DNA of 47,805 bases, taken from IMG/VR virus record IMGVR_UViG_3300009537_000024, positions 1-47,805 of that record; one strand, written 5' to 3'. Made by a program: the position numbers and the translations under genes. Source of the DNA: a virus. The notes below the pieces were generated by a model. It was not told the origin of the DNA, did no database searches, and was given only the letters and a program-made list of their open reading frames with translations. Numbering within the stretch: position 1 is the first letter of the stretch; every line of letters begins with the position of its first letter. This document shows, one piece after another, positions 13,003 through 47,805 of the stretch.

Positions 13003-13111
13003 TCACCCGAATCACCAACCCCCAACCGTTCTGTCCCGCTTCATACGCTTTGGCCAGTACGGCGGCCAGGTCGGGGTTGTCCGTGTTTACTACCATGGGC
13101 TCTACGCTCAT
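12977..13111 (-). CDS. Small ORF (44 aa)
   Basis: ATG 13111 overlaps the upstream stop (ATGA). MSVEPMVVNTDNPDLAAVLAKAYEAGQNGWGLVIRVNGAEKKIG; overlaps the DegT start by 26 nt. Confidence 0.35.
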   Translation of the reverse strand: MSVEPMVVNTDNPDLAAVLAKAYEAGQNGWGLVIRVNGAEKKIG

Positions 13112-13374
13112 CCGACCTTCTCCTCCAGAAACAGCACCCTCGTCTCCAGCCCCTTCAACTGCGTCTCGACAGCAGCCGGGACCTTAGTCTGACCCCTGGG
13201 GGCCGTCTTCAAGGAATCCCCCAGTGCGCGGATCTCTTGCTGAAATTGCCGCGCCTCCTCGTACGCCGCGTCCAGCTTCTTCTGCCGGTGCTGGTGCTGG
13301 TTCAGTAGGTGCTCGAACTGATCGAGCCTTCGGTGCACTTTTGCCAGTTCGCTGTGCAGGTCGAGTTCGCTCAT
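13108..13374 (-). CDS. Coiled-coil protein (88 aa)
   Basis: AAGGAG 5 nt upstream of the ATG; heptad-like sequence LDQFEHLLNQHQHRQKKLDAAYEEARQFQQEI. Confidence 0.65.
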   Translation of the reverse strand: MSELDLHSELAKVHRRLDQFEHLLNQHQHRQKKLDAAYEEARQFQQEIRALGDSLKTAPRGQTKVPAAVETQLKGLETRVLFLEEKVG

Positions 13375-13471
13375 TGATCTCCTTCAGGATACTCAAGATT
13401 TCCGGGAGCTTTTCTTCGAGCGCGATGATGCGGTCGTAGATCGCTCGGGTGTGGTCTGGGTTCACGCTCAT
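13184..13471 (-). CDS. Short coiled-coil ORF whose reading frame runs on over the next gene
   Basis: MSVNPDHTRAIYDRIIALEEKLPEILSILKEINE looks coding. The remaining ~60 codons, up to the first in-frame stop at 13184, look like out-of-frame sequence. Confidence 0.4.
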   Translation of the reverse strand: MSVNPDHTRAIYDRIIALEEKLPEILSILKEINERTRPAQRTGKSAPKARSVRAPTEPAPAPAEEAGRGVRGGAAISARDPRTGGFLEDGPQGSD

Positions 13472-13605
13472 CGTCTTCCCTGTAATTCTGCCACCGCCAC
13501 TCGCAGCCGTCGCACGATCGCCTCCGTCTCGGCCTGCCTCACTTCGAGCTGCAGGACGAGCGCCGCGATCTCTGTGAGCTTGGGCGTCGGTGGCTTCTTG
13601 GGCAT
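13468..13605 (-). CDS. Small helical protein (45 aa)
   Basis: MPKKPPTPKLTEIAALVLQLEVRQAETEAIVRRLRVAVAELQGRR; high GC3; its stop overlaps the next ATG (ATGA). Confidence 0.5.
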   Translation of the reverse strand: MPKKPPTPKLTEIAALVLQLEVRQAETEAIVRRLRVAVAELQGRR

Positions 13606-21011: not shown

Positions 21012-21396
21012 CAGTGCACACACCTGTCGTCTTCGGGATCACGGCCGCAGTAGTAGCATCGGCGACCAGCACCTTCCCCAACTGCCTCACCACCCCCCGC
21101 CTCTGCTCCGGGCGCAGGCGCGGCCAGTTCAGGGCTGTCCACGACAGCTTCATCAGGACCCAGTGGATTGTTCGCAGCGCTCTGTGTTCGCCAGAGGGGG
21201 CAGTTGCAGCAGTGGATTGCGCCTGGCGGGTTCCAGCCGCGGCAGCCGTTGCACTGCCACCCGTACGCGCGGAGGAGGTCGAGCGCCCCAGATCTGGGGG
21301 CCACCCCCACTTTCGCATCTGCTCCTCGATCAGCAGCTCCTCCGAGAACTGCACCCTGCGCAGTGACTCCTCGCGCGTCGGCTTCGGCTCGGTCAT
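21001..21396 (-). CDS. Alternative-frame ORF overlapping the 3' half of 21011..21679
   Basis: GAGGA+4 nt before ATG 21396. Very high GC3 at 21396-21300 (MTEPKPTREESLRRVQFSEELLIEEQMRKWGW) and again at 21180-21040. See findings. Confidence 0.3.
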   Translation of the reverse strand: MTEPKPTREESLRRVQFSEELLIEEQMRKWGWPPDLGRSTSSARTGGSATAAAAGTRQAQSTAATAPSGEHRALRTIHWVLMKLSWTALNWPRLRPEQRRGVVRQLGKVLVADATTAAVIPKTTGVCTDDL

Positions 21397-21679
21397 CGTG
21401 TCCTCGTTCGTCATGTGCATGCCACCATAGGTAACTCAGCCCCGCCGAAGCGTGCGTCAGGTGCGACTCCCCGGTCTCGGGGTCCAGGTCCTCGCCGGAG
21501 CGCCACGCCCACAGGTGGCGCAGCACGCTGGCGTAGAGGCGCGTTGCTGTGAGGCCGCGCCAGTTGCCGACCTCGTACTTCCGGTCGCCGCTCTCGCACA
21601 CACGGGCCACAGCGAGCAGCCAGCGGGCGTCGAGGTCGTCGGTGGCCGGCTTGCCGGCGTCGTTCTTGGTTCCGCCCAT
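21011..21679 (-). CDS. dATP/dGTP pyrophosphohydrolase-like (DUF5664-type) domain fused by readthrough to a RanBP2-type zinc finger
   Basis: KNDAGKP..LLAVARV..G..KY..GNWR..RLYASVLRHLWAW..GEDLDPETGESHLTHA matches my recollection of the domain. WQCNGCRGWNPPGAIHCCNC fits W-x-C-x2-C-x3-N-x6-C-x2-C. Confidence 0.55.
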   Translation of the reverse strand: MGGTKNDAGKPATDDLDARWLLAVARVCESGDRKYEVGNWRGLTATRLYASVLRHLWAWRSGEDLDPETGESHLTHASAGLSYLWWHAHDERGHDDRAEADARGVTAQGAVLGGAADRGADAKVGVAPRSGALDLLRAYGWQCNGCRGWNPPGAIHCCNCPLWRTQSAANNPLGPDEAVVDSPELAAPAPGAEAGGGEAVGEGAGRRCYYCGRDPEDDRCVH

Positions 21680-21918
21680 TAGATCACCTGCCTCCAGCAC
21701 AACACGATCCGCACCTGTAATACAAACGACACCCCCGACACCGCCACCAACGAGCCGACCCCGAGCAGGACGCCCTGCGCAGCGAACAGCGCGTTCACAC
21801 AGGACATGCCCACCATACCCCACCAGCGCCGCCGAGGCGACGGGGAAGCGAGGACCCACAGAGCGGCGATATCAATGACAAAGGCCGCCCAGCCCAAGAG
21901 GTGGGCAAGGTTACTCAT
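21679..21918 (-). CDS. Small multi-pass membrane protein (79 aa)
   Basis: Three hydrophobic segments (GWAAFVIDIAALWVLA, VNALFAAQGVLLGVGSLVAV...). Confidence 0.6.
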   Translation of the reverse strand: MSNLAHLLGWAAFVIDIAALWVLASPSPRRRWWGMVGMSCVNALFAAQGVLLGVGSLVAVSGVSFVLQVRIVLCWRQVI

Positions 21919-32398: not shown

Positions 32399-33003
32399 TG
32401 GCAGAGCTTGGGAAGCGCCCGAAGAAGCAGACGCGCCACCCGGTGCCCGAAGAGGAGCAGATCCAGGCGCCGGACGCGCAGCTGGAGCGTAAGAAACTCT
32501 CGGCCGCGCTCATGCAGATCGCGACCAAGGCGCTCGCCGTGTCGCCGCGGGACGTGGACGTCTACACCCCCCGCGAGCTGGACCTGAGGATTGCCGAGGC
32601 CATGTTGGCCGGCGCGATCACGTACAAGGCCATCGGTGAAGTGCTGGAAGAGAACCCGGCAGCGATTGCCCGCTACATGCGCGACCCGCTCGTGTGCGCG
32701 TGGATCAGCCGCACGGTACATGGCCACGTCCAGCATCGCCTCGGAATGGTCGACGCGGCCATGCTCAACCGCGCCATGGCGGGCAGCACCTCGGCCGCGA
32801 AGCTCCTGTACGAGCGCTACGGCCAGATGGTCCAGCGTAGTGTGAACATCAACATTGGCGGCAAGGGCGTGGACTTCACGAAGTTCGACGATGCCGATCT
32901 CGACGCCTTCATCAAGGACGCGAACAAGAATGCCGGAGTCATTGACGTCGCGCGAGGAGAAGATCAAGCTCCTCCAAGCGATCGAGGAGAGGAAGAGGCG
33001 TAA
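32398..33003 (+). CDS. terS: Putative terminase small subunit
   Basis: Sits immediately upstream of TerL and overlaps it. Basic N-terminus and an HTH-like ITYKAIGEVLEENPAAIARYM. Confidence 0.5.
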   Translation: MAELGKRPKKQTRHPVPEEEQIQAPDAQLERKKLSAALMQIATKALAVSPRDVDVYTPRELDLRIAEAMLAGAITYKAIGEVLEENPAAIARYMRDPLVCAWISRTVHGHVQHRLGMVDAAMLNRAMAGSTSAAKLLYERYGQMVQRSVNINIGGKGVDFTKFDDADLDAFIKDANKNAGVIDVARGEDQAPPSDRGEEEA

Positions 33004-34528
33004 GCGCGCAGCGCCCCTCTTCTACGCAGAGCCGCACGGCAAGCAGGTCGACTTCATCCGCGCGCAGGGCGAGAAGCGTATCGTGCTCATGTCGGGCTCG
33101 AACCGCTCGGGTAAGACCTGGGTGGCCGGCGTCGACGCGGTTGAATTCGCCTACGGCTACCGCATCCACCAGGCTGCAGCCGATGGCGCAATCGATCTGA
33201 CCGCCGAGGGCGACTACCCGCCCCGCGAGGCCGTGCCGCCTAAGTACTGGATTCGCCGGCTGGACGGCCCGCCCCTGCGCGACCAGCGCTCGATCCTTGT
33301 CGTGACCGGCCTCACCATGGAGAAGGGTATCGGGCAGATCCTGTGGCCCGAGATCGAGGGCCTGTTGCCCCTGGCGCTCCGGAGCCGGCTCCACGTCGCG
33401 CGTGGCCCACACGGCGTACCGCACCGGATCTCGCACCCCGACGGCAGCTGGCAGATCCACTTCGGCTCGATCCAGCAGGGCTCGATGGTCTTCGAGGGCC
33501 AGAAGGTCGATTACGCCCACTTCGACGAGCCGCCCAGCCGCACGGTCTTCACCGCGGTGTGGCGCGGCTGCATCGACTACTTCGCGAGCGTCGGTTTCAC
33601 TTTCACCCCGCTCGGCCACGACGCGCCCTGGCTCTATGAGGAGTTCTACGTCAACGAGCGGGACGACGTCGCCATTGTCGAGGTCGCGCCCGAGGACAAT
33701 CCGCACGTCACCGCAGAGGCATTCGCAGCATTCACGGCCGGCGTGGCACTCTCCGAAGAGGAAGAGCTGGCACGCACACGCGGTAAGTTCGGATTCCTAA
33801 CCCACCGGGCTTTCCAGAACTATGACCGCAACGTGCACCTCATCGAGCCATTCGACATTCCCCGTGAATGGCCTCGTGCGTGCTGGTGCGACCCCGCGTC
33901 ACGTCGGCCGTACTACTTCCTGTGGGCGGCCTTCGACGTCGTAAACAAGTCGTGGGTCGTGTACCGGGAGTTCCCGTACGACAAGCTGCACCACCAGTAT
34001 CGCTCCAGCTCGTGGACGATCGAGGACTACGCCACGATCTTGCGTAACCTGGAAGGACAGGAGCGTGTCGACTGCCGCGTGATCGACCCCCGCTTCGGCG
34101 TGGCGGAGTACTCAATCAAGGGGCAGAAGGTCACGTCCGTAGTCGAGGACTTTGCCAAGTTCGGCATCTACTTCGACCCGCGCGTGCCGGACACTGGGCG
34201 CGAAGAGACCGGCATCGAGCGCATTCGGCAGCTGCTGCACTACGACACGAAGCTCCCGATTGGTCCTTTCAATCGACCTAAGCTCTTCATTTTCAACACG
34301 GTCAAGTCCCTCCCCCACTCGATGGAAAACTACGCCTTCGTGGCACCCAATGCGCGGGACGATCGTGTGCTGGCGGAAAAGACCGGTGAAGCGTTCAAAG
34401 ACCCGGTGGACACTCTGCGGTACGGAATATTGTACGGGCCTCCTGCCCGCATGTCCGACCAACACAACTCCTACATCAAAGAGAGGGACTTCCTTGCTGA
34501 GAATGCGATTGACGATGATTGGCTGTAG
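32930..34528 (+). CDS. terL: Terminase large subunit
   Basis: Walker A MSGSNRSGKT, Walker B-like YAHFDEP, and C-terminal RNaseH-like nuclease acidic residues (CDPASR, VIDPRFG, DPVDTLRY). ATG 32930 chosen within ORF 32855..34528. Confidence 0.9.
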   Translation: MPESLTSREEKIKLLQAIEERKRRKRAAPLFYAEPHGKQVDFIRAQGEKRIVLMSGSNRSGKTWVAGVDAVEFAYGYRIHQAAADGAIDLTAEGDYPPREAVPPKYWIRRLDGPPLRDQRSILVVTGLTMEKGIGQILWPEIEGLLPLALRSRLHVARGPHGVPHRISHPDGSWQIHFGSIQQGSMVFEGQKVDYAHFDEPPSRTVFTAVWRGCIDYFASVGFTFTPLGHDAPWLYEEFYVNERDDVAIVEVAPEDNPHVTAEAFAAFTAGVALSEEEELARTRGKFGFLTHRAFQNYDRNVHLIEPFDIPREWPRACWCDPASRRPYYFLWAAFDVVNKSWVVYREFPYDKLHHQYRSSSWTIEDYATILRNLEGQERVDCRVIDPRFGVAEYSIKGQKVTSVVEDFAKFGIYFDPRVPDTGREETGIERIRQLLHYDTKLPIGPFNRPKLFIFNTVKSLPHSMENYAFVAPNARDDRVLAEKTGEAFKDPVDTLRYGILYGPPARMSDQHNSYIKERDFLAENAIDDDWL

Positions 34529-34757
34529 TTTGCTCGTGGGCTGCGGGACGTACGAGGTTGCAGACCCCGTCACTGGCGCGGTCACCGTAGTCAACCCCGT
34601 GGCCGAGATCGGCACGGCCGCGTATGACGCCGCGCGCGAGGCCGTGCCTGCCAGCCCCACCGATCTCATGGGATGGATCGGCGCCGGCATTGCGGCCCTG
34701 GTCGCGGCGGGAGCGACGGGGGCCAAGATCTACATGAACAAGAAGAAGAAGGCATGA
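34503..34757 (+). CDS. Lipoprotein with C-terminal transmembrane anchor (u-spanin-like architecture)
   Basis: MRLTMIGCSLLVGC lipobox-type signal, then C-terminal GWIGAGIAALVAAGATGAKIY followed by KKKK. 84 aa, overlapping the TerL 3' end. Confidence 0.4.
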   Translation: MRLTMIGCSLLVGCGTYEVADPVTGAVTVVNPVAEIGTAAYDAAREAVPASPTDLMGWIGAGIAALVAAGATGAKIYMNKKKKA

Positions 34758-35464
34758 CCAAGCAACGCACGCCCGCCACCACCATCCGCATCGCGCGTGC
34801 CTTTGAGGGTCCCCGCCACGAGCGCCTGGAGAAGGTGTGGGACTGCATCGCGGAATACGTCCAGGACGACGCGCGTCTTATCGTAGAGCCGAATAGGTCG
34901 CCGCGCATATCGCACGCTGATATCTTCGGCCGCATGTACGCCAAGGACAGCGAGGAGCCCAACAGGTTCCTGCTACTTACGGAGTACGACTGGCTGCCCG
35001 ACCTCAGCGGTGACTGGCTGCCCACGCACGTGTTCGACGAGACGGATCTCGCGGTGCTGGTCACCCAATACTACACGCGCAACCCCGAAAACATGCGGCT
35101 GCGTAAACATCAGGGTAAACCAGGCGGCTGGTACATTCTGGTCGACAAAGCTCGCGCCCCCCATATCCGCACCTTCCACGGAGAACCCGACCCCGCTAAC
35201 CAGCTGTCCAGCGAAGCCGACGCGCTGATTCTGCCCGGTGAGGACTGCTACCCGCTCCACTACGGGGTCGAGTACCCCATGGGCACTCACCTGTTCTGGT
35301 CGCGCCACTACCACGACGGTGACGACGACGATGTGGTTGCGGGTGTCCGCCTCGGCGACATGCGCGTCCTGCACGACCAGGCCGTCACACTTTGGCTTCG
35401 GCTCCAGCCGACCGAGTTTCTCAAACTCGTACTGGGCCGTCACCCGGAGATTCTTGATGCGTAA
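34754..35464 (+). CDS. Hypothetical protein (236 aa), possibly GT-A-like
   Basis: ATGA coupling. LLLTEYDWLP acidic motif and a DGDDDD tract; no firm family assignment. Confidence 0.5.
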   Translation: MTKQRTPATTIRIARAFEGPRHERLEKVWDCIAEYVQDDARLIVEPNRSPRISHADIFGRMYAKDSEEPNRFLLLTEYDWLPDLSGDWLPTHVFDETDLAVLVTQYYTRNPENMRLRKHQGKPGGWYILVDKARAPHIRTFHGEPDPANQLSSEADALILPGEDCYPLHYGVEYPMGTHLFWSRHYHDGDDDDVVAGVRLGDMRVLHDQAVTLWLRLQPTEFLKLVLGRHPEILDA

Positions 35465-36170
35465 CCGAGTCCCCACGACCGCCCGCCGCTTCGGCATTAT
35501 GTTGAGGGTTCATCGCCGCCACCAGTATCTGAAGCGGATCTTTGACAACTTTCGCAAGCTGGCACAAGGCCGGGAAGTGTTCATCTCGATTCAGGTCGAT
35601 CGTCCCACCCCCGAGGTAGCGGCGCGATTGGGCAAGCTTGTGGAGAAGCTACCCCAGAGCATCAAGGTCGGCTTTATGGAGTCACCGTTCCCGCTCCTGG
35701 AGCGTAAAGAGCGGTATATGGAGGCGCTCCAGATCCAGTACGAGCATCTTAAGGACTTAGCGGCTCGGGATCTACAAGCCGCGGCACTCTGGGATGACGA
35801 TTTTTGGCTTAGCCCCCGAGGGCTGCGTGAGCTTCGAGGGCACCTGGACATTTTGGAGGTTGATCGCGTAGAGGCGCGCAGCATTTTCCTATGGGACAAC
35901 CCCGAACAGCACAACACCAACTTTCCGCCGCATTGGCAGGCGCTGGTCTTCCGCGTCTTCCCCAGCGACAACTTCCCTCGCGACTACACCGTCCACTGTC
36001 CCGTCCGCGCCGCCGCCGGGTCCAGTACCCGGCTGAAGAATCCGCTGCTGAACGCGGGGTATATGGACGAAGAGGACCGGCGGCTGACCTGGTTGGCGTA
36101 CCGGCGCGCGGGTAAGATCGACGCACATACAATTAAACTAACCCTACCCCCGACCTTGGAGAAGGTGTAA
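35457..36170 (+). CDS. Putative GT-A-fold glycosyltransferase-like protein (237 aa)
   Basis: N-terminal beta-alpha start (FGIMLRVHRR..L..I..) and a DxD-like ALWDDDFWL; weak, motif-level only. Confidence 0.4.
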   Translation: MRNRVPTTARRFGIMLRVHRRHQYLKRIFDNFRKLAQGREVFISIQVDRPTPEVAARLGKLVEKLPQSIKVGFMESPFPLLERKERYMEALQIQYEHLKDLAARDLQAAALWDDDFWLSPRGLRELRGHLDILEVDRVEARSIFLWDNPEQHNTNFPPHWQALVFRVFPSDNFPRDYTVHCPVRAAAGSSTRLKNPLLNAGYMDEEDRRLTWLAYRRAGKIDAHTIKLTLPPTLEKV

Positions 36171-38197
36171 TGGCAATCACCCGGATGAATCCCGTTAGCG
36201 TGGAGGTCGTGGGCGACTATGTTGATTCGCTCTCAGACCAGATCGACAAGTTGGTCAAGCGCGTCGAGGACGTCGACAACGCCAACGCGGGGTGGACCCG
36301 GAAGCAGCTTAACTACATCAAGGCGCGCACCGGAAAACGCAAGCAGAAGCGCGTGCCTTGGGTCGGGGCGAGCAACATCAACGTCCCCCTCGTGGACGGC
36401 ATCATTCGCCGCTGGCGCCCTGGCATTACGTCACTGGTGCTGGACGCCAACCCCGTCGCGTTCTTTGTGGCGCGGGAGCCGGGCGACTTCGATCCTGCCC
36501 GCGTGGTCGAGCCCTTCTTCACCTGGCTCTTCGTCGACCACATGGACACGCCCCGCGAGGTGGCGCGACTCGTGGACCTGATCGCCTCGCGCGGGCACGC
36601 ATACGCCCGCGAAGGCTGGAAGTACGAGACCCAGCGCCAGGCACGCATCGCGCGCGTCGAGTCACTGTTCCCCGAGGGGCTGGAGGCGTACCTGCAGGGT
36701 CAAGCGCAGGCGCAGGAGCAGGCCAAAGCTGTGGGCGCCGTGTCTCAGGACGAGAACTTCTCTCCTGTCGCAGCCGTCATGAAGCGGATCGCGGACGAGT
36801 ACGGCATGAGCATCAACGACCCACAGGAGCGTGATTACCTCCTGCTGGCCGCAAACATGTTCCTGCAGGGGGCGCCTGCGGTGAAGCTCGTGTATGAGTC
36901 AGTGAAGCATGACCGCCCCGAATGGTACGCGTTGGACCCGGTCAACGTCATTACCGAGCGCTGCGGCGACCCGGAGATGGCCGACTTCTTTGTGGTCATT
37001 CACGAGTTGACGCAGGACGAACTCAAGCGCATGGCCCGCGACGGCCGCTTCCCGTCTGGGCGCGCACAGGGGCTGGGCAAGAAAGTGGAGGAGCGCGGCA
37101 ACCGTGATTCCAGTATGGGCAATCGGTCCGGAGGGGCGGGCGGCAGCATGGCCCGCCGGCAGATCCGTGATTATATGGATCGGCGCTCCGGTGTTTTCAC
37201 AAACAAGAAAATTCGAAAACAAGACCATCTCGTAACACTGTGGGAAACGTATTGTAACCTGGACATCAACGGCGACGGCCTCCAGGAGCGGTGCGTGGTC
37301 TGGTACGCTCCGGAGCACAAGTATGTGCTGGACGCGCGGGAGTTTCTCCTGCCCGTGGATACTTGGCCCATTACCGTGTACCAATTCGAGGCGCACGCGG
37401 AATCGCCCACCGACTCGCGCGGTGTACCTGAGCTGCTGTCCGAGCTGCACAAGCTGGTCAACGCCTTCCACAACGCGCGCATTGACGCAAGCCAAATCAT
37501 CCTCGCCCCGGTCATGCAGCGCCGGGCTACGGCAGGGGATTACGCCCAGTCTATTCAGTGGCGCCCCGGGGCAATTATCCCCGTACAGCAGGTGGGGGAC
37601 GTCGCGCCGATTGACCAGAACCTCAACATCCTGGTGGGCCTCCTCCAAGAGGAGCAGAATGAACAGCGTATCGCGGAGTCCTACATCGGGACCTTCGACG
37701 CCACCATCAACCAGCTCAACCAGCCCACCGAGCGCCGCACGGCCACCGAGGTCAGTGCGATCACCCAACTCGCGCAGAACGTTTTCGGCCTCGACGCGCG
37801 CATGTTCCAAGTTTCCATGGCTCGCAGCTTCAGGAAGATCTGGCAGCTGTGGCTCGAATACGGGCCGGAGGAGATCTTCTTCCGGGTCACCGGCGAGCAG
37901 CAGCCGCGGCTCGCCCAGAAGTCGGAGATCGCGCGCCTTTACGACATCACCCCCGCGGGCACCCCTTCGTCCACCAATAAGGCATATCTCATGGCCTCGA
38001 TGGAAAAGGTGCTGCAGATCGTCATTAGCGACCAGTCGGGCCGCTTCGACGTAGGCGCGCTGCTCGAAGCGTACTTTAAGTTGATCGACCTCAACCTTGC
38101 CAAAATGGTCGTCCGCACGCAGGAGCAGACCCAGCAGGCACAACAGATCATGCAAGCCGCCGCTGCGCTGAGCGGAGGAGAAATACAGCCATTCTAA
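36170..38197 (+). CDS. Portal protein
   Basis: 675 aa, between the terminase region and scaffold/capsid. Acidic/Gln-rich C-terminus; typical size and position. Confidence 0.8.
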   Translation: MAITRMNPVSVEVVGDYVDSLSDQIDKLVKRVEDVDNANAGWTRKQLNYIKARTGKRKQKRVPWVGASNINVPLVDGIIRRWRPGITSLVLDANPVAFFVAREPGDFDPARVVEPFFTWLFVDHMDTPREVARLVDLIASRGHAYAREGWKYETQRQARIARVESLFPEGLEAYLQGQAQAQEQAKAVGAVSQDENFSPVAAVMKRIADEYGMSINDPQERDYLLLAANMFLQGAPAVKLVYESVKHDRPEWYALDPVNVITERCGDPEMADFFVVIHELTQDELKRMARDGRFPSGRAQGLGKKVEERGNRDSSMGNRSGGAGGSMARRQIRDYMDRRSGVFTNKKIRKQDHLVTLWETYCNLDINGDGLQERCVVWYAPEHKYVLDAREFLLPVDTWPITVYQFEAHAESPTDSRGVPELLSELHKLVNAFHNARIDASQIILAPVMQRRATAGDYAQSIQWRPGAIIPVQQVGDVAPIDQNLNILVGLLQEEQNEQRIAESYIGTFDATINQLNQPTERRTATEVSAITQLAQNVFGLDARMFQVSMARSFRKIWQLWLEYGPEEIFFRVTGEQQPRLAQKSEIARLYDITPAGTPSSTNKAYLMASMEKVLQIVISDQSGRFDVGALLEAYFKLIDLNLAKMVVRTQEQTQQAQQIMQAAAALSGGEIQPF

Positions 38198-39163: not shown

Positions 39164-40114
39164 ATGGCAACTCTTGTAACTTGGGATGAATTCTCTGGTA
39201 CCGAGGTGAAGGGCGGGACGATCAAGGAGATCGTCATGGCCGAGGTGGCCAACCTGGTCGCCACGGACCGGCCGCTTATGTCGATCCTGGGTGTGGAGGA
39301 TGTCGAATCGACGTTCGTCGAGCGCCTGGAGGACACTCTCGGCTCCCGCGGGCATAATGCCGTGTCGGAAGGTCAGCCGTTCACCGCGCCGGACCTCACG
39401 ACCGCGAGCCGTCTGGGCTACCACGTCCAGCGATTCGCCAAGTGGGGCCAGGTCTCGGATGAGCAGCGGGACACCGCGCACTACAACGAGGACCCGTTCA
39501 GCTACCAGGTCGGCAAGTCGACGGACGAGATGCTGAACGACGTCGAGCATACGCTGCATCGCGGCACCGTGGCCTCGGGCGCGTCGGGTACTGCCCGCCA
39601 GCTCGAAGGTCTCATCTCGGTGTTCAACGTGGCGGGCACGGTGACGTTCCAGACGAACTCCTCCGGCACGACGTTCACGGAGCAGCAGTTCATCGCGCGG
39701 CTCCAGGCATTCAAGGACAACAACCTCACCACGAACCCGCGTGTCGCGCTCGTGAACTCTTGGCTCAAGCGCTCCATCTCGGAGTTCTCGACCAAGATCA
39801 CGCGCAACCTCGATGCGGTGGGTGCCCGGCAGATCCTCCTCATCGAGCGGCATACGTCCGACTTTGGTGATGTGGATGTCGTGTACACGCGCGATCAGCT
39901 CAACGCCGCGTCGGCGACCGTGAACGGTAACTCGTTCATTGTCATCGATCCGGAGATGTTCTCGACTGGTTGGTTCAAGCGACCGACCTTCGAGCAGCTG
40001 TCTCGCGACGGGTTCCGCGACCGCTTCCAGATGACGACCCAGCTGACGCTGCTCTACAAGAGCCGCAACGGCGGTGGTGGTGGTTTGGGCTACGTCGCGA
40101 ACGTCACTCTCTAA
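39164..40114 (+). CDS. Major capsid protein (HK97 fold, SU10/DUF5309-like)
   Basis: 316 aa. N-terminal pattern ..ATDRPLMSILG...E.LEDTL....NAVSEG resembles SU10-type capsid proteins. Followed by a strong terminator. Confidence 0.8.
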   Translation: MATLVTWDEFSGTEVKGGTIKEIVMAEVANLVATDRPLMSILGVEDVESTFVERLEDTLGSRGHNAVSEGQPFTAPDLTTASRLGYHVQRFAKWGQVSDEQRDTAHYNEDPFSYQVGKSTDEMLNDVEHTLHRGTVASGASGTARQLEGLISVFNVAGTVTFQTNSSGTTFTEQQFIARLQAFKDNNLTTNPRVALVNSWLKRSISEFSTKITRNLDAVGARQILLIERHTSDFGDVDVVYTRDQLNAASATVNGNSFIVIDPEMFSTGWFKRPTFEQLSRDGFRDRFQMTTQLTLLYKSRNGGGGGLGYVANVTL

Positions 40115-40122
40115 CCCACTGA

Positions 40123-40166
40123 GGCGCTGGGGGCAGGCCCTGAAAACCTGTCCCCTCGCCTTTTTT
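40123..40166 (+). terminator. Rho-independent terminator after the capsid gene
   Basis: ggcgctgggggcagg-ccctgaaaa-cctgtcccctcgcc followed by tttttt; 9-bp GC stem (one G-U) plus an outer ggcg/cgcc extension. Confidence 0.8.
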
Positions 40167-40177
40167 CTGGAGTTCCC

Positions 40178-40318
40178 ATGGCCGATAACGCCAAGAAAAA
40201 GAAGAAGGTGGGGGATACCACCCTGTTCGAGAAGATTTTTGGGAAGCCCGCGGGCACTGGGGTAGCCGGCTCCATGGGCAACCCCGACCGGAATCGAAAA
40301 CCGAAGAAGAAGAAGTAG
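40178..40318 (+). CDS. Small basic protein (46 aa)
   Basis: MADNAKKKKKVGDTTLFEKIFGKPAGTGVAGSMGNPDRNRKPKKKK; below the ORF-track cutoff. Confidence 0.4.
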   Translation: MADNAKKKKKVGDTTLFEKIFGKPAGTGVAGSMGNPDRNRKPKKKK

Positions 40319-40321
40319 TAC

Positions 40322-40666
40322 ATGGCCGTCATCCATACCAGCGACAAGGAAAAGAAACGCCGCCTCATGAAGGCTGTCATCGACGCCTGCATGCAGCTTT
40401 GTCCGTGGTATCTCGATGAATGCGTCCAGGCGCTCAAAGAGACGAAGAAGTCCGAATTCGACCCGAAGACCGGCAAACTCCGTGCCGAGGCGCGGGGCGA
40501 CATGGAGCACGGCGGCTACATCCGCGTACGCTTTCCTCGTGAGCTATTCTTTCTCATGCGGCGCTTTTGGCCTACGTTCGGGGACGATGACTCCGACCTG
40601 AAGCTGCTTGCTGATGAGTTCCCTGACCTTGTCCAACACCGCGGCGGGAGACACGTACACCAATGA
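40322..40666 (+). CDS. Hypothetical virion-module protein (114 aa)
   Basis: Clean ORF, ATGA coupling downstream. Confidence 0.6.
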   Translation: MAVIHTSDKEKKRRLMKAVIDACMQLCPWYLDECVQALKETKKSEFDPKTGKLRAEARGDMEHGGYIRVRFPRELFFLMRRFWPTFGDDDSDLKLLADEFPDLVQHRGGRHVHQ

Positions 40667-40996: not shown

Positions 40997-41812
40997 ATGC
41001 CAATCAGTGCAGAGCCCACCAGTGTCTGGCTGCTGGATGAACTCAGTGGAAACGATCGGGTAGATAGCCTCGGCGGCCCCAGCTTCGTCGACGCGGATGC
41101 GGGCACCCCCACGGCCTCTAACGCCACGGCCCTCTTCGGTCGCAGCGCAGATTTCACAGCCAAGACGGCGTATCTGCGCATGGCCGCCACGACCTCGGTG
41201 AACCCGCAGGGCACCTTTTCGCTTGCAGTTGGGATACGCTTTGCCAACAGTAACCACCAGCAGGCTTACCTGGTGGCGAAGCGAGATTTTGCGGGAGACG
41301 TGGCAGACAGATTTTGGTTTATCGATCATCTCGATACGACCAACGCGCCGGAGCGCTTTCGGTTTGTTCTGCGCAATTCAGCGAATAGCGCCGATCAAAC
41401 TGTGGAATTCGCGCACGTGCCTACCGACAATGCTTGGATCCTCGTTATCGCAAAGTATGACGCTACCGCACAAGTTGTGGGGTTGTCGGTCAACGGCAGC
41501 GCTTTCACCACGGCGGCCGCCACGGGGGGCATACGCACAGACGCAGCCACGATTGTAACGTCCCTGGCTAAGGAGGGCGATGCTGCCGTCACCGCCAATA
41601 CGGGGCGCGGCTCACAGCTGCTGGACCACCTGATGTACTGGGACGGCGACGCGCTGTCTGACGCGGATGCGTCGTTTTTGTACAACGACGGCAATTGGCA
41701 GGATTATCCCTTTTCTTCGCCCGAGGCTGTAGTGGCCAGCGTGGGAGATGGGAGCCTTGGACCCGGCGGGCGCGCTCGAATATATAACGCTATTTTCCTG
41801 TTGGGGGGATGA
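40997..41812 (+). CDS. LamG/concanavalin-A-like lectin domain protein
   Basis: FSLAVGIRF...YLVAKRD...FVLRNS...WILVIAKYD...LSVNG and a terminal LDHLMYWDGDALSDADASFLYNDG follow the LamG beta-sandwich pattern. Confidence 0.55.
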   Translation: MPISAEPTSVWLLDELSGNDRVDSLGGPSFVDADAGTPTASNATALFGRSADFTAKTAYLRMAATTSVNPQGTFSLAVGIRFANSNHQQAYLVAKRDFAGDVADRFWFIDHLDTTNAPERFRFVLRNSANSADQTVEFAHVPTDNAWILVIAKYDATAQVVGLSVNGSAFTTAAATGGIRTDAATIVTSLAKEGDAAVTANTGRGSQLLDHLMYWDGDALSDADASFLYNDGNWQDYPFSSPEAVVASVGDGSLGPGGRARIYNAIFLLGG

Positions 41813-42105
41813 TAATGGCTCTTCTCGATCGATTAATCGACGGCGGTGAAAGCGGAAAGATTCCGGTGCATACCTTCATGGCCGCGGTCGGGGAGGTGCG
41901 CGACGGTGAGGCGACACTCGCGCAGCTCGCAGCGGCCTTTAACCTCGATGCGCAGGAACAAGCGCAGCTCGCCGAACTCGGGACACGGCTCGCGGCGGAT
42001 GCCTTCACTGCCGACGGCGTGCTGCACCGTGTGTTGATCCTTGGCGAGGCAGGGCTCTACGACAAGGCGCGCATCAAGACGCGGCTCGGACTCGCACTTG
42101 GCTAA
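41809..42105 (+). CDS. Hypothetical protein (98 aa)
   Basis: Clean ORF, overlapping both neighbours. Confidence 0.6.
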   Translation: MIMALLDRLIDGGESGKIPVHTFMAAVGEVRDGEATLAQLAAAFNLDAQEQAQLAELGTRLAADAFTADGVLHRVLILGEAGLYDKARIKTRLGLALG

Positions 42106-43385
42106 TGGCATTCAAAGCTGCGGTCATTAATGACGTCTGCGCGACCGGCGGCGGGACGCAGGACTTTACTTCCGCCGGATTCGGGACGCCTGACGCCTAC
42201 ATGGTGATCGTTTCGCATGCAACAGCGAACGATACCGAGGCGAGTGGCGCGTGTCTGAGTGTTGGCTTTGGCGACAAGACGACCGAGGGATGTAATGCTA
42301 CGTTTTGTCGTGACCAGCTAACGAGTACGAACACGTTTCGTGGAGGATATAACGGCTCCGTTCTTATCCTTAAAAACTCCACATCTTCAAATGCCGGCGC
42401 TGCACAGTTCTCTGCAGCTATCACCGACGGTATTCGCCTCAACTGGACGACGACTCCCGAACAAGCCTACAAAATTACTGTCGTGCTTTTCCAGGGTGTG
42501 AGCGCGAAATGTCTCATTAATGTCACGTCTGGGGTAACGAACGCGGTTGGCTTTGAAGCAGATCTCGTTTTCCTCGCGTCAGCGCGCAGTACGTTGGCAG
42601 AGCACAAAACGCCGATCGAGATTACGACGTACGGCGCACTCAGTGTCGGAATCGCGGTAAATGAAGCGACGGCTAAAAACATGTCGCACAACTGGGGTAG
42701 CCAGAATGCCTTCGCGACAGGCGCCCCATACAGTGTGCTCCATAACGACGTCTGTATGTCGAATCCAAGCAACAGTAGCGATAACGACACGCACTATACA
42801 ATTGACACGTACGACTCCGACGGCTTCACCGTTAATAAGGTCAACGGAACCGACGAGAAACCACTCGCCCTTTTGGCGCTGAAACTTACCGATGGTGAAG
42901 CGATCTCGCTCCTCACGCGGACATCGCGAACGACAGTCGGCGAGGATTCATACGGTGTTGGCTTCACGCCCGGCTTTCTCTTCGCTGTTGGCACAGCCCA
43001 CGACACACTCAACGAGTACATTAATAACGATCAGCAGTGCAGTGCGTTCTGTATTGGCGTCTATGACGGTACCCTGGCCGCATCTCACGCGATCACTGAC
43101 GAGGATGCCAGTGCGGACTCAGAAGCACATTCTTATTTTGCCACCGATATCCATTGCCGCATAGCTAACGGCGCGGGAGCCTCAGCAGAACTATATCAGT
43201 TCGACCCCACATTCCATACAGGCGGGTATACCCTGACGTATACGGGAACGCCTGATGGTACCGCACGTCACATGCTGGTACTCGCCATTGGTGCTCCGCC
43301 GCCTGCGCAGGTAAACACGTACGACGGTAGTCTGGGCGGAGGTGGCGAAACACGCCCTTCCTATACAGGTTGGTTTTTCTATTAA
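42105..43385 (+). CDS. Fibre/receptor-binding-like virion protein (426 aa), low-GC
   Basis: S/T/N/G-rich beta-type composition. Local GC about 45-52 percent (two lines counted) against 68 percent in a line of the giant gene. 10 N-x-S/T sequons within the first ~250 aa. Confidence 0.5.
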   Translation: MAFKAAVINDVCATGGGTQDFTSAGFGTPDAYMVIVSHATANDTEASGACLSVGFGDKTTEGCNATFCRDQLTSTNTFRGGYNGSVLILKNSTSSNAGAAQFSAAITDGIRLNWTTTPEQAYKITVVLFQGVSAKCLINVTSGVTNAVGFEADLVFLASARSTLAEHKTPIEITTYGALSVGIAVNEATAKNMSHNWGSQNAFATGAPYSVLHNDVCMSNPSNSSDNDTHYTIDTYDSDGFTVNKVNGTDEKPLALLALKLTDGEAISLLTRTSRTTVGEDSYGVGFTPGFLFAVGTAHDTLNEYINNDQQCSAFCIGVYDGTLAASHAITDEDASADSEAHSYFATDIHCRIANGAGASAELYQFDPTFHTGGYTLTYTGTPDGTARHMLVLAIGAPPPAQVNTYDGSLGGGGETRPSYTGWFFY

Positions 43386-43394
43386 GGAGCATGA

Positions 43395-45986
43395 ATGTCC
43401 GCCACACTCAGTGTCAATATCATTACCAAGGATCAGCCTAAGGCTACTGCACGTGCCGTAGCTTCGCTACAGAGCCTCGTACGCGCGGGAGACGAGGTAA
43501 TCGTTGTGGATACCGGGTCCTCGCCCACGAACCTCAAGGACCTGAAACGCCGCCTCCCCCTTGCTCTACCGGACAGTGTGGATCTCTGTGTACTGGAGCA
43601 TCCTGAGCTGTCCGTGTCTTTACAGCCATATATCGACGAGTGGCTGCCGGAGCGTTCGGGCGAGATTGAGACCCACGAGCAGTACAAGAACCTGCGCGGT
43701 ATCCTCGACTTCGCCGCCGCACGGAACGTGGCCCTCGATGCCTCGACGCGCGATGTCGTATTCTGGATCGACAGCGACGATGTCCTTGTTGAGAAGGACC
43801 CCGGCCAACTGCGTAGCGTGATCGATCGCGCGCTGGGCGACCCTGAGCCCACGTACAGCGCGCTGTTCCTGACGTACGAGTACGCCTTCACAGAGGACGG
43901 CACCCCCTCGACCATCCTGAAGCGCGAGCGCGCAGTACGTCGCGGCGAGTTCCGGTGGAAGGGACGCTGCCACGAGACTCTGATTCCAGAGGACCATTGT
44001 AAACTACCGGTTGGGTTTGGTGCAGACCTGTATTCCGTGATCCGCCACACCGAGGCTCGAAAAACCGGCGCCATCTGCGATATCCGCAACTACCTCGCTC
44101 TGCGCAAGGAGGTTGAGGAGACCAGGGAAAAGTGGCTCGACCCACGCACGCAGATGTACATCGGTAATGCTGCGCGCGGCCTGCAACGGTTCAAGGAGGC
44201 CCTCGGCTACTACAAGGACTTCTTCTACCGCTCCGGCTCGCCAGACGACCGCTACGCCACGTGCCACTACATCTGTGACATTCTCATGCGCGAGGAGATC
44301 CAGCGCCCGGTTGAGGCGGCAAAGTGGTATCGCGAAGCTATCGCGATCTTCCCGAAGGACCCGCGCGCGTACTTCGGTCTGTCGCGCTGCTATGCCGCGC
44401 AGATGCGGTGGTCGGAGTGCATTGACTGGTTCGAGATTGCCCGAGGATTCGAGCCGCCGGAGCACACCCTCCACACGTACGATCCAAACTCGGTATTCTA
44501 TACGCCGTTCATCATCGCGGCCAAGGCGTACTTGGAGCTGGAAGACCCCGATAAAGCTATCGAATGCATTCATGCCGCAAAGCGCTTCCGTCCGAACGCG
44601 CCCGACATCGACACTGTGGTGCAGACCGTGGAGCAGCTCGCCGCCGGCCAGCGTCTCACTAACATCTTGATCGAGGTGGGCCGGCATGTCAAGGGCGGCA
44701 GCCACCGGGCGCGCGAAATGCTGGGCAAAGTGCTGCCGTACCTCTACGCCGTTCCTGAGGCTCTGGAGAAAGTCGGCATTGGCTTGCCCCAAGAGGACCC
44801 ACGGAACGACGCGCCCGAGCTGGCGATCTTCTGCGGCGAGACTGCCGAGCAGTGGGGGCCGGCGTCTGCCAAGACAGGGATCGGGGGCAGTGAAAAGATG
44901 ATCTTGCTCCTCGCCCCGCTCCTCCAGCGGCTCGGCTGGAACGTGACAGTCTACGCCTCGGTGCCGTTCAAGCAACGCGGCGTGTACCCGGACGGCGTGC
45001 GGTGGGCGCATTGGGCCGAGTTCGACCGCACGAAGCCGCTGGATGTGCTCATCGGCTGGCGCTTCCACGGCCACATGCTGATTCCTGTCTCGGCTAATCT
45101 GCGCGTGCTGTGGCTCCACGACGTCCAGCACCCGGACCAGTACACTACCGAAATCCTGGAGTGTACGGACTATGTAATCGCGGAAAGCGAGTACCACGTG
45201 CAGCCATTGCGGGGGGTGGTGCCGGATGAAAAGCTGGTGGTGCTGCGTAACGCCGTGGCGCCGCCCGACCGGGACATGCTGGAGGGCAAGGACCCAAAGC
45301 GTGTCATCTTCCTGCAGAGTCCCGATCGCGGGCTCGTGACCGCGCTCAAGATGGTAGCCGCCGCGCAGAAGGTGGACCCCGAGATTAAGGCGACGGTGCT
45401 CTACGGCTTCAGCCCCTATGCCCGCAAGTGCCGCGCTCAGCGCGATCACCAGCACATACCGGATCTCGGAAGAGACGGAAGTCTGGACGAGTACGAGCTG
45501 GAGGTCTGCCGGCTGATCGACGAGACGAACGCAGACCAGGGCAACCGTGTGGGGTTTGAACAGGTGTGGGAGCAACTCCAGCATGCCGGCATTTGGCTGT
45601 ACCCCACCCGCTTCCCCGAGATCTCGTGCATGTCAGCAATGGAGGCTCAAGTTGCGGGTTGTGTGTGCATTACTTCTGGCTATGCTGCTCTGTCTGAGAC
45701 AGTGCTCCCCGAAGCGCAGGCCCTGGGAGAAGATCTCGGTCCCGTGGAGGATTCCGAGGATTATATCCAACGAGGCGCGTGTGCGATTCTGGCTGCGACG
45801 AAAGTCCCCGCCCATGATCCTCGTCGGGCAGCTCAATCGGATGCCGCGCGTGCTGCTTACGACGTGAAGTTGCTCGCGGAAGACTGGACTGAGTTGTTTC
45901 GTGCGGGTGAGTCCAAGAGTGGCGGCTTAGAGGACTCCGAAAGCGGCAGCGTGCGGCCGGCCCGCGTTTCACAGGAGGCAGGATGA
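43395..45986 (+). CDS. Multidomain glycosyltransferase: GT2 (GT-A) - TPR-like repeats - GT-B (GT4/GT41-like)
   Basis: N-terminus: SVNIITKD..VIVVDTGS..ARNVAL..VFWIDSDDVL (GT2, DxD). Middle: TPR-like helices (ALGYYKDF, AAKWYREAIAIFP, AYFGLSRCY). C-terminus: GIGGSEKM ... EISCMSAMEAQVAGCVCITS (GT-B E-x7-E-like region). Confidence 0.8.
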   Translation: MSATLSVNIITKDQPKATARAVASLQSLVRAGDEVIVVDTGSSPTNLKDLKRRLPLALPDSVDLCVLEHPELSVSLQPYIDEWLPERSGEIETHEQYKNLRGILDFAAARNVALDASTRDVVFWIDSDDVLVEKDPGQLRSVIDRALGDPEPTYSALFLTYEYAFTEDGTPSTILKRERAVRRGEFRWKGRCHETLIPEDHCKLPVGFGADLYSVIRHTEARKTGAICDIRNYLALRKEVEETREKWLDPRTQMYIGNAARGLQRFKEALGYYKDFFYRSGSPDDRYATCHYICDILMREEIQRPVEAAKWYREAIAIFPKDPRAYFGLSRCYAAQMRWSECIDWFEIARGFEPPEHTLHTYDPNSVFYTPFIIAAKAYLELEDPDKAIECIHAAKRFRPNAPDIDTVVQTVEQLAAGQRLTNILIEVGRHVKGGSHRAREMLGKVLPYLYAVPEALEKVGIGLPQEDPRNDAPELAIFCGETAEQWGPASAKTGIGGSEKMILLLAPLLQRLGWNVTVYASVPFKQRGVYPDGVRWAHWAEFDRTKPLDVLIGWRFHGHMLIPVSANLRVLWLHDVQHPDQYTTEILECTDYVIAESEYHVQPLRGVVPDEKLVVLRNAVAPPDRDMLEGKDPKRVIFLQSPDRGLVTALKMVAAAQKVDPEIKATVLYGFSPYARKCRAQRDHQHIPDLGRDGSLDEYELEVCRLIDETNADQGNRVGFEQVWEQLQHAGIWLYPTRFPEISCMSAMEAQVAGCVCITSGYAALSETVLPEAQALGEDLGPVEDSEDYIQRGACAILAATKVPAHDPRRAAQSDAARAAYDVKLLAEDWTELFRAGESKSGGLEDSESGSVRPARVSQEAG

Positions 45987-46279
45987 ACATCAACGAGTAC
46001 AGCACCATTTCGTGGGACCCAGTGGGCTCGGCTCTGTACACTGTACGGCTGGAGACTCCAACCGGGGGTGTGCTTCACAACATCGCCAACATTGTAGGCA
46101 TCAGCCTGCCGGCGACGGACCTGCTGCTCAACGCTGGCGCGCCGCGAACCGGTGTTTCCCAGGGAGGATCGTACAAGATTCGTGTACAGACGCAGGGAGC
46201 GTTCGGTAACAGCACCGGCGCGGTCGTCGATGTGATCGTCCAGGGTGCACCAGACCCTGCTAACGTCATCATTAGCTGA
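45983..46279 (+). CDS. Small beta-rich (Ig-like?) virion protein (98 aa)
   Basis: ATGA coupling to the glycosyltransferase; alternating beta-strand pattern. Confidence 0.55.
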   Translation: MNINEYSTISWDPVGSALYTVRLETPTGGVLHNIANIVGISLPATDLLLNAGAPRTGVSQGGSYKIRVQTQGAFGNSTGAVVDVIVQGAPDPANVIIS

Positions 46280-46288
46280 GGGTAGTTC

Positions 46289-47242
46289 ATGGCCACGGTA
46301 GGCAACATCATCGATCAGGCTCTGCGGCTCGTCAACCGGGTCGACTCGTCGTACCGGCAGCGAGCCCTCGACGCGATCGAGCGCAACATTCGGTACTACG
46401 CCGAGCGCCTACCGTGGCCATCTCTCGTCCGGCAGGAAACGTTCTACTCGAATGGCACGGACAACTTCGTGTTCCCGCAGCGCGTCCGACAGCTGATCTC
46501 AGTCGGCGACAACACACACAAGTCGTACGTGCCGCCGGGCAAGCACTTCGAGCGCCAGTACCCCGAGTGGCAGCTGGGCAGCAAGCCCTCGGGCGGCCCG
46601 TTTCAGTGGCGGCCCATGGGCGTCGTGCCCGTCATCCAGGACCCTGCCGCGGCTACGTACCTGGAGCTGAACACGCAGGCGTCGGACTCGCAGACGGTGT
46701 ACATTCGCGGTACCGCGCAGGACACCACCGCGTCCGGCACGCCGCTGGAGTTCTACGAGACGGAGGAGTCTGTCACAGCTGTGCAGACCCCCGTCACCAC
46801 AACTAACCTATTCTACCGTGTGTTCTCGATCGAAGCGGCTAACCTCGATCGCGGCAGCGACGTGATCGCGCGCTACTCTACCGGCTCGCTCCCGGCCGCT
46901 CGCGTGCCGACTTTCGACCGCCACAGCAAGTACAACAGGATTGAGTGGCTCGCGAAGCCGGCCGCGGGTGCAGCGTTCCAGTGCCAGTACTACGCCGACC
47001 CACCCAAGATGAACTCCGAGACGCAGGCGCTTGACCCGCAGATCCCCGAGGATTACCTGCTGTGGCGCACAGTGGGTGATCTACATTGGATCGCGGAGCA
47101 GCCCCAAGCAGCCAACGCCGCATGGGGTCGCGCGGACGAGCTGCTCAAGACCAAGATTGACGCCGAGACGACGCACGGCGACCAGAACCACCAGGCTATC
47201 CCGTTCGCGCCTTTCATTGTAAACGACGAGTCATGGGAATGA
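46289..47242 (+). CDS. Virion protein, putative head-tail adaptor / tubular-A-like (317 aa)
   Basis: Precedes the nozzle-like gene and the internal proteins, as in T7-like order; positional only. Confidence 0.5.
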   Translation: MATVGNIIDQALRLVNRVDSSYRQRALDAIERNIRYYAERLPWPSLVRQETFYSNGTDNFVFPQRVRQLISVGDNTHKSYVPPGKHFERQYPEWQLGSKPSGGPFQWRPMGVVPVIQDPAAATYLELNTQASDSQTVYIRGTAQDTTASGTPLEFYETEESVTAVQTPVTTTNLFYRVFSIEAANLDRGSDVIARYSTGSLPAARVPTFDRHSKYNRIEWLAKPAAGAAFQCQYYADPPKMNSETQALDPQIPEDYLLWRTVGDLHWIAEQPQAANAAWGRADELLKTKIDAETTHGDQNHQAIPFAPFIVNDESWE

Positions 47243-47418: not shown

Positions 47419-47805
47419 AGATCTCTTAGTAGATGCGACAGAATCGCTGGACGGAGGCGCGTACCAGAATGCGCGTGTCTGGAAAGCGCCTCCTAACACC
47501 TACGCCGACGGGTACAATATAGACGTCTCGGAGGTGGGTGTCTGGAAGCGCCGCCGCGGCGTTGCCTCGCGCGGCACCTCGCCTGGGCGGTCCGGCGGCT
47601 TTATCTGGACACGCAACTCCTTGGGCACTCCGCTGCTCTGGACCATTTGGGGCAGCCAAATCTTCCGCACCACGGGCTTCGGCGAGATCGATGCCCTGCC
47701 CGTGACAAACATCACATGCTACAACCAGACCCTGCATCAGATGGTGGAGGGCTTCTATAACAACGCCGCTTTCGCAGTCAATCAATACAAGGCAATTTAT
47801 GGCTG
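47402..47805 (+). CDS. 5' part of the junction-spanning nozzle-like gene (continues at base 100 via the repeat)
   Basis: ATG 47402 directly follows an in-frame TGA and overlaps the stop of 47233..47418. The frame is open to the window end and in phase with ORF 35..1357 (47,706 is divisible by 3). Confidence 0.7.
   Translation, partial: MFPRNEDLLVDATESLDGGAYQNARVWKAPPNTYADGYNIDVSEVGVWKRRRGVASRGTSPGRSGGFIWTRNSLGTPLLWTIWGSQIFRTTGFGEIDALPVTNITCYNQTLHQMVEGFYNNAAFAVNQYKAIYG
47707..47805. repeat. Terminal direct repeat (second copy)
   Basis: Identical to 1-99. Confidence 0.95.

Follow-up and report, generated by a model that had tools for sequence, protein, structure and literature searches.

Which molecule does a phage glycosylate when it encodes a large glycosyltransferase (GT) among the genes for its own capsid? 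The question is raised by the 47,805-nt viral contig analyzed here, IMG/VR record IMGVR_UViG_3300009537_000024, positions 1 to 47,805, with 63.0% GC (hereafter the window, meaning this whole 47.8-kb stretch of DNA). In it, a plus-strand open reading frame (ORF) encodes an 863-aa protein that a first-pass annotation, made from the sequence alone, had described as a GT2 domain, a block of tetratricopeptide repeat (TPR)-like helices, and a GT-B domain. That annotation had placed the gene in a tail module next to a fibre-like gene rich in N-x-S/T sequons and had proposed that the phage glycosylates its own virion. Here we report that the GT anchors a head cassette made up of the major capsid protein (MCP), a small protein termed p114, the GT, and an adaptor. 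This cassette is conserved in a large clade of podophages that are uncultured and have capsid, portal, and adaptor proteins of the SU10 type. We then weigh which acceptor is compatible with this arrangement.

Architecture and predicted active sites of the glycosyltransferase

The three-part architecture was borne out by Pfam searches, by an AlphaFold2 (AF2) model, and by invariant motifs (Table 1). The start codon that gives 863 aa is backed by an AAGGAG box, by homologues that align from residue ~5, and by AF2 confidence. By comparison, the public gene call P0001, at 802 aa (93% coverage), is too short. The protein matches Pfam Glycos_transf_2 (PF00535) with 28.0 bits (cut-off 23.3, E=2.5e-6), and its match to Glyco_transf_4 (PF13439) is sub-threshold (19.8 bits vs 28.5). 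PF00535 is recorded for most homologues and PF00534/PF13692 for many. In PHROGs, two different glycosyltransferase families match, one for each half of the protein.

An alignment of 42 homologues with 24-82% identity served both as AF2 input and for the analysis of conservation. The resulting model (pLDDT 92.3, pTM 0.88) comprises GT-A, all-helical, and GT-B domains and a disordered tail. D126, D128, and D129 of the WIDSDD motif are invariant in the alignment, as is E742. E750 is at least 90% conserved, and E742-x7-E750 constitutes an EX7E motif in the C-terminal Rossmann half of the GT-B domain. With the catalytic motifs kept in both domains, both active sites look functional as judged from the alignment. 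The TPR-like domain between them is presumed to be a module that binds a protein substrate. There is no membrane-like segment in the protein (maximum Kyte-Doolittle value over 19 residues, 1.39).

Affinities to characterized glycosyltransferases

When a profile of the whole GT family was compared with PDB sequences, the best non-TPR matches were the GT domain of GmaR (E=1e-24), SunS (5e-17), and ThuS (4e-10); TPR proteins matched as well, the TPRs of OGT among them. Foldseek aligned SunS/ThuS with the GT-A domain plus helices (E~3e-14, TMt 0.57-0.67); for 7msp_B, the root-mean-square deviation (rmsd) was 4.1 Å across 353 columns. A profile restricted to the C-terminal domain (A2) matched GT4 enzymes only, namely MshA-type 7qsg (E=7e-11), GlgM, and PimA. 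By profile and by fold, the GT2-TPR half groups with GmaR and SunS/ThuS, and by sequence the GT-B half is GT4-like.

GmaR of Listeria likewise has an N-terminal GT2 domain followed by TPRs. It is soluble, works in the cytoplasm, and transfers O-GlcNAc onto flagellin, a structural protein that assembles by itself, before the flagellin is assembled or exported (PMC9638930). Unlike the phage protein, GmaR carries a C-terminal antirepressor domain in place of the second (GT-B) catalytic domain, and unlike the gmaR product the phage enzyme is encoded in a head module and has an acceptor that we can only infer. SunS and ThuS, which glycosylate Cys residues of peptides, also combine a GT-A domain with a helical TPR-like domain, and SunS is phage-borne, being encoded by the SPbeta prophage. 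These two enzymes differ from the phage GT in acting on Cys of small bacteriocin peptides and in lacking a GT-B domain; no bacteriocin-like precursor gene was evident in the window.

For the full AF2 model, the top-ranking Foldseek matches were SPINDLY (SPY), human OGT, and XcOGT, with E-values from 5e-17 to 1e-12. SPY and OGT glycosylate proteins, and this ranking counts in favor of a protein acceptor. The first-pass annotation had seen in the combination of TPR and GT-B the architecture of GT41 enzymes, including N-glycosyltransferases. On Pfam and motif evidence we reject this membership. The GT41 family PF13844 has no match in the window protein (E<=0.01) and is missing from the Pfam lists of 120 homologues, the GT-B domain has a GT4-type EX7E motif, and its sequence matches are to GT4 enzymes. 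GT41 enzymes also have no additional GT-A domain. What is shared, a GT-B catalytic domain immediately preceded by TPRs, appears from the models to be an architectural resemblance only. In our reading, the phage protein combines two known TPR-GT designs, one with GT-A ahead of the TPRs and one with GT-B behind them, by sharing a single TPR domain, which by analogy to OGT may hold a protein substrate.

A conserved cassette in the head module

Searching for homologues of the GT yielded more than 100 full-length proteins, many of them on contigs of 39-47 kb, and a scan of IMG/VR identified at least 457 viral stretches that encode a relative. Gene order was assessed with jackhmmer on the ORFs of 85 related loci. 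In 81 of these loci, an SU10-type MCP gene precedes the GT on its strand, and a homologue of p114 is present in 80, often with a gap of -3 to +20 nt to the GT start. An adaptor gene follows downstream of the GT in related loci, and several show the minimal order MCP - p114 - GT - adaptor. In the window, the product of the gene that bounds this slot downstream is 26% identical (E=1e-26) to a protein of relative L005 that carries a weak match to PF24175 SU10_adaptor. Because the GT gene sits between the MCP and this adaptor homologue, the tail-module location assigned earlier does not hold.

At the equivalent position, phage SU10 encodes gp10, an Ig-like putative minor capsid protein (PMC9509320). 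In the window, the gene between GT and adaptor encodes a small beta-rich protein of 98 aa that matches nothing in PDB and does not resemble SU10 gp10 in sequence. The ATGA coupling of this gene to the GT was confirmed, and size-matched ORFs follow the GT in relatives L168, L169, and L002.

In SU10 and MW202710, the MCP, portal, and terL are recognizable, but GT and p114 are both missing. Both genes are equally absent from 80 loci of an MW202710-type sister clade, 58 of which extend 3 kb or more past the MCP. These sister-clade loci were found with a single MCP as the IMG/VR query, the MCP alignment being too diverged for the scan. The GT-less comparison set amounts to 82 loci from two capsid-related phage groups. 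Since p114 occurs in 80 of the 85 GT loci and is absent from these 82 GT-less SU10-type loci, p114 tracks the GT. Searches of PDB, PHROGs, Pfam, and NCBIfam assigned p114 to no known family, and a word-indexed homologue search with it returned two proteins only. A p114 profile gave RecA-fusion matches alone in PDB, which we judged spurious.

A nucleotide search of phage records with an 11.8-kb region of the window found nothing. Among species-representative genomes, phage-type GT copies accompanied by terL, portal, MCP, and p114 were present on contigs of metagenome-assembled genomes (MAGs), and the clade occurs in MAGs of several very different phyla. A prophage-like copy with the same five genes lies inside a 9.5-Mb Acidobacteriota MAG chromosome (L089, OY969418.1, 5374342-5396342), which may point to a host phylum and to the existence of temperate relatives.

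Directly 3' of the MCP gene of the window, a hairpin with a T-run is predicted at 40121-40166 (plus strand; dG -29.3 kcal/mol, z=-3.4). It is followed by an ORF for a lysine-rich protein of 46 aa (40178-40318, plus strand) with the conserved motif LF(D/E)xIFG...GGS(M/F)G, which is also found in L168, L002, and L169.

Proposed function and candidate acceptors

The ORF encodes a soluble enzyme with two active sites, and its target is most likely a protein. To this extent the earlier proposal (STRENGTHENED), that of a phage-encoded GT acting on protein among virion genes, is supported: by the affinity to GmaR, SunS, and ThuS, by the position beside the capsid gene in ~80 diverged loci, and by cellular relatives in flagellin-glycosylation loci, which are described below. 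The explanation we favor, to which we would give an even chance of being correct, is that the GT is expressed late and works in the cytoplasm, where it O-glycosylates a protein of the head: the MCP or else a decoration protein from the slot of the GT itself.

Under this mechanism, the GT would be expressed late, with the structural genes, downstream of the strong hairpin that follows the MCP gene, and would work in the cytoplasm. There its TPR domain, possibly aided by p114, would bind and select the head protein. The GT2 domain would put a first sugar on Ser or Thr in the manner of GmaR, and the GT4 domain would add a second. In relatives, slot-encoded additional GTs, methyltransferases, and nucleotide-sugar enzymes would then elaborate the glycan.

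The MCP is our leading candidate acceptor. Its residues T135, S138, T159, S209, and T213 correspond to positions that are Ser/Thr in 80-99% of GT-bearing MCPs and in 0-15% of those of the GT-less sister clade; these may be candidate glycosylation sites or mere clade markers.

Several observations weigh against glycosylation of a head protein. MCPs of GT-bearing phages are not enriched in Ser+Thr over those of GT-less relatives (17.4% vs 20.2%), and the 316-aa window MCP, in which the SU10_MCP domain spans residues 22-302, has no C-terminal extension like those reportedly glycosylated in mycobacteriophages. The p114 protein has no recognizable fold family; as it has no conserved Ser, Thr, or Cys, it is also unlikely to be the acceptor. 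The co-occurrence of GT and p114 comes from few clades and few independent lineages and could be due to common descent alone. The phage collection yielded no cultured representative of the clade, and protein searches led only to uncultured Manatee Spring genomes and distant matches. The Foldseek alignments to GT41 proteins, which cover ~700 columns of the full model, reach a TM of only 0.25-0.43 at an rmsd of 16-22 Å. We infer the acceptor itself and likewise how the glycan is linked, which sugar is transferred first, and what p114 does. Finally, acceptors of GT2 and GT4 enzymes are mostly lipid-linked or polysaccharide, and PHROGs files the families matching both halves of the GT under "moron, auxiliary metabolic gene and host takeover".

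Sugar genes of the slot and host envelope glycans

In relatives, the head slot grows into sugar-biosynthesis islands. Among 96 plus-strand ORFs scanned between MCP and adaptor in related loci, we identified ten further GT2 proteins and six LamG (Laminin_G_3) proteins, together with many methyltransferases. The same set contains GDP-mannose 4,6-dehydratase, DegT aminotransferases, epimerases, GT1/GT4 enzymes, cytidylyltransferases, LicD, and radical SAM/SPASM proteins. In the annotated record MW202524, the MCP is accompanied by a hypothetical protein, the GT, two more GTs, methyltransferases, and a hyaluronan-synthase-like gene. L005 and L006, the most diverged groundwater relatives, encode a radical SAM/SPASM protein directly after the GT (12480-13535); SPASM enzymes are frequent modifiers of peptides or proteins. 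The window has a DegT/DnrJ/EryC1-type gene in its other arm, the product of which has WbpE and other sugar aminotransferases as its best PDB matches and may tailor a sugar donor for the GT.

Such islands also fit the alternative that survives best, one already raised in the first-pass annotation, according to which the GT and the variable islands remodel envelope glycans of the host (O-antigen, capsule, or teichoic-acid-like polymers), so as to mask receptors, block superinfection, or keep progeny from sticking to cell debris. With GDP-mannose dehydratase, DegT, RmlD-like, LicD, and cytidylyltransferase genes, the islands of relatives are O-antigen-like. GT2 and GT4 are the usual families of polysaccharide assembly, the best matches of the GT-B half (MshA-type, PimA, and GlgM) use small-molecule or lipid acceptors, and the PHROGs category of both halves fits as well. 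We nevertheless consider this alternative unlikely. The GT is devoid of a membrane segment, and its TPR domain and affinity to GmaR and SunS indicate protein acceptors. Unlike a moron, it is nearly universal and fixed between MCP and adaptor across 24-82% identity, and it lies within the late structural operon. Its cellular homologues, moreover, are found in flagellar and not in O-antigen loci.

Cellular homologues and host proteins

In Desulfarculaceae, cellular homologues with 28-31% identity to the phage enzyme are split into a GT2-TPR gene and a GT4 gene, which are adjacent. Their neighbors encode Maf-type (MptE-like) GTs, FliD, FlgK, and a flagellin-domain protein. Pooled over 13 cellular loci, MptE-like domains were found five times, FliD and Maf_flag10_N three times each, and Flagellin_N twice. 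This flagellar context is an independent link between the GT family and the glycosylation, in the cytoplasm, of structural proteins that self-assemble. Maf-type flagellin glycosylation islands also resemble the phage islands in their nucleotide-sugar genes. By contrast, the phage loci that we examined yielded neither Maf nor flagellar genes, and the identity to the phage enzyme is low, as given above.

From these relatives one might suppose that the acceptor is a protein of the host, for example flagellin, pilin, or an S-layer protein, and that its glycosylation alters a receptor used by competing phages or the behavior of the host. Both the nearest characterized enzymes and the cellular homologues do belong to flagellin or peptide glycosylation. 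We regard this as improbable, since it leaves the conserved coupling to MCP and p114 in the head module unexplained, and since a late enzyme of a lytic-type podophage has little time to alter exported host structures. In addition, the presence of the clade in MAGs of several very different phyla makes a single conserved host target unlikely.

The inserted 426-aa protein and other possible acceptors

The acceptor favored by the first-pass annotation was the product of the gene directly upstream, a protein of 426 aa. N-glycosylation of its sequons by the GT, as carried out by GT41/HMW1C-type enzymes, would fit the adjacency of the two genes and the leading position of TPR-plus-GT41 proteins in the Foldseek search with the whole model. 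The 10 N-x-S/T sequons reported for the first ~250 residues are indeed present, at residues 42-247, and are about twice as many as the 5.0 expected from composition (p=0.013, uncorrected). This excess, however, is for one gene among 19 tested and does not withstand correction, and each sequon position is common to only 0-2 of 13 homologues. As set out above, the enzyme lacks a GT41 Pfam match, and its EX7E motif and sequence matches are those of GT4.

The genomic context argues further against this acceptor. By blastn against L168, the stretch 41692-43382 has no counterpart, and neither the 426-aa gene nor the 98-aa ORF preceding it (41809-42105) is present in L168, L169, and L002, although these closest relatives retain a GT that is 82%, 57%, and 55% identical, respectively. 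In all three, the LamG gene abuts the GT directly. The 426-aa protein family is small, with 14 members, and around one of them, on a phage contig, gene calling shows no GT for 7-10 kb. The low GC content noted earlier for this gene was confirmed by sliding-window GC and by GC at third codon positions (GC3): it has 54.2% GC, with 300-nt windows down to 51%, and a GC3 of 0.58, compared with 63.0% GC for the contig and a GC3 of 0.70-0.86 for most structural genes nearby. This dip is explained by the insertion.

The AF2 model of the 426-aa protein is compact, globular, and all-beta (pLDDT 80.6, pTM 0.87) and not fibrous. We found no PDB match (E<=0.001) and no match in Pfam, PHROGs, or NCBIfam. 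Comparison with BFVD gave a TM of at most 0.38, mostly to unnamed phage proteins and to some baseplate or minor-tail proteins. With this model and no fibre homology, we reject the identity of the protein as a fibre; judged from the fold, a virion beta-sandwich protein is plausible. The 426-aa protein is recent inserted cargo outside the conserved system. It could be an incidental extra acceptor but is probably not the main target of the GT, and we consider its N-glycosylation as the purpose of the enzyme very improbable.

Glycosylation of modified bases in phage DNA is hardly credible: phage DNA glycosyltransferases are well known and the genome has a MazZ-like diphosphohydrolase domain and a DegT-like enzyme, but the TPR domain and the affinity to GmaR and SunS indicate protein acceptors, the gene lies in the head and not the replication module, and Pfam scans of the window found no PurZ-like, hydroxymethylase, or TET gene. 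The MazZ-type dATP/dGTP diphosphohydrolase family is linked to 2-aminoadenine (Z-base) genomes.

Other genes of the window

The window is a circularly complete, permuted genome, because the contig of L168 aligns across its end and start (1-1355 and 47757-47805). The features considered here are collected in Table 1. Between portal and MCP, the structural arm has a plus-strand gene in the position of a scaffold gene. The LamG protein of the window, with a domain that recurs in the head slot of relatives, is possibly a head decoration.

Table 1. Positions of the features discussed, in window coordinates
Feature	Position	Strand	Remarks
DegT/DnrJ/EryC1-type nucleotide-sugar aminotransferase	11980-13002	-	other arm; Pfam E=1e-19
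MazZ-type dATP/dGTP diphosphohydrolase N-terminal domain	21014-21859	-	282-aa protein; Pfam E=4e-23, PHROG 801
terL	32855-34528	+	structural arm
First ORF between terL and portal	34754-35464	+	invariant His, Glu, Asp in family (H22, H54, E77, D79, H179, D188 and others)
p310 family ORF	35238-36170	+	possible divergent GT-A fold; invariant DD in LWDDD motif (weak)
SU10-type portal	36170-38197	+	Pfam E=7e-25
SU10-type MCP	39164-40114	+	316 aa; Pfam SU10_MCP E=6e-40
p114	40322-40666	+	small helical protein; usually abuts GT start in relatives
LamG (concanavalin-like) protein	40997-41812	+	271 aa; homologous to L002 Laminin_G_3 protein
Lineage-specific insertion	41692-43382	+	~1.7 kb; carries 98-aa ORF (41809-42105) and 426-aa all-beta protein (42105-43385)
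GT-A/GT2 + TPR + GT4-like GT-B protein	43395-45986	+	863 aa; two catalytic domains
GT-A/GT2 domain	43395-44054	+	aa 1-220; motifs VVDTGS and WIDSDD (DxDD)
TPR-like helical domain	44067-44774	+	aa 225-460; Pfam TPR_2, TPR_14, TPR_19; all-helical in AF2
GT-B domain	44808-45908	+	aa 472-838; motifs GIGGSEKM and EISCMSAMEAQ (EX7E); GT4-like
98-aa beta-rich ORF	45983-46279	+	start overlaps GT stop as ATGA
Head-to-tail adaptor homologue	46289-47242	+	bounds slot on downstream side

Two ORFs between terL and portal had also been put forward as possible GT-A-like proteins. For the second of these, p310, a family profile gave few and weak PDB matches, mostly to GT-A enzymes (MGAT2, E=0.004; SunS, 0.2; B4GALNT1, 0.7), and hhalign placed its LWDDD motif on the FWIDSDD (DxD) of the GT2 domain with a probability of 26% (E=7e-4); no match was found in Pfam, PHROGs, or NCBIfam. 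Together these comparisons hint at a GT-A protein. The first ORF received no such support, as PDB, Pfam, PHROGs, and NCBIfam held no detectable relative. The residues that are invariant in its family suggest that it may be an enzyme.

A giant plus-strand ORF at 3325-10284 (2319 aa, GC3 0.86, 66.6% GC) has no Pfam or PHROGs match. Its counterparts in relatives L003 and L005, of 2051-2093 aa, terminate the structural arm, and its product may be an ejection or internal virion protein. Just past this gene, on the opposite strand, a ClpP-like protease domain is encoded at 10250-10915 (Pfam E=9e-6), possibly representing a prohead protease in an unusual position.

Relation to known virion glycosylation and implications

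Glycosylation of phage particles is documented mainly in a few actinobacteriophages, and among viruses of eukaryotes in chloroviruses. As cited in PMC13313380 and PMC12582341, phage-encoded GTs of actinobacteriophages, sometimes together with methyltransferases, are thought or have been shown to decorate virion proteins (Freeman et al. 2023). The association of GT genes with virion structural genes is common to actinobacteriophage systems of this type and the phages described here. The mycobacteriophages with this system are, however, siphoviruses with separate, simpler GT genes, in contrast to a fused GT-A-TPR-GT-B enzyme with p114 beside the MCP. In mycobacteriophages the glycans reportedly sit on Ser/Thr-rich C-terminal extensions of capsid and tail-tube proteins, a feature that the window MCP does not have.

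Virion glycosylation in actinobacteriophages is thus already known, as are enzymes of the GmaR/SunS type and the OGT type. In our literature search, we did not find described a fused GT-A-TPR-GT-B enzyme, a p114 partner, or a fixed capsid-side place with variable glycan islands in hundreds of contigs from uncultured podophages. We put forward tentatively, and with more doubt than confidence, that an uncultured environmental clade of podophages routinely glycosylates its capsid by means of a two-gene module consisting of the fused GT and p114, and that the variable islands give rise to strain-specific glycan coats.

As a compact soluble enzyme with two active sites, the GT might be of use for protein glycoengineering. 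The glycan genes of the slot, which change from strain to strain, bear on the resistance of particles to grazing, their sticking to surfaces, their recognition, and their persistence. If the proposal is correct, a widespread group of environmental podophages would glycosylate their capsids as a matter of course, with the trait conserved among them, and their strain-specific capsid glycan coats would be a viral counterpart of O-antigen diversity.

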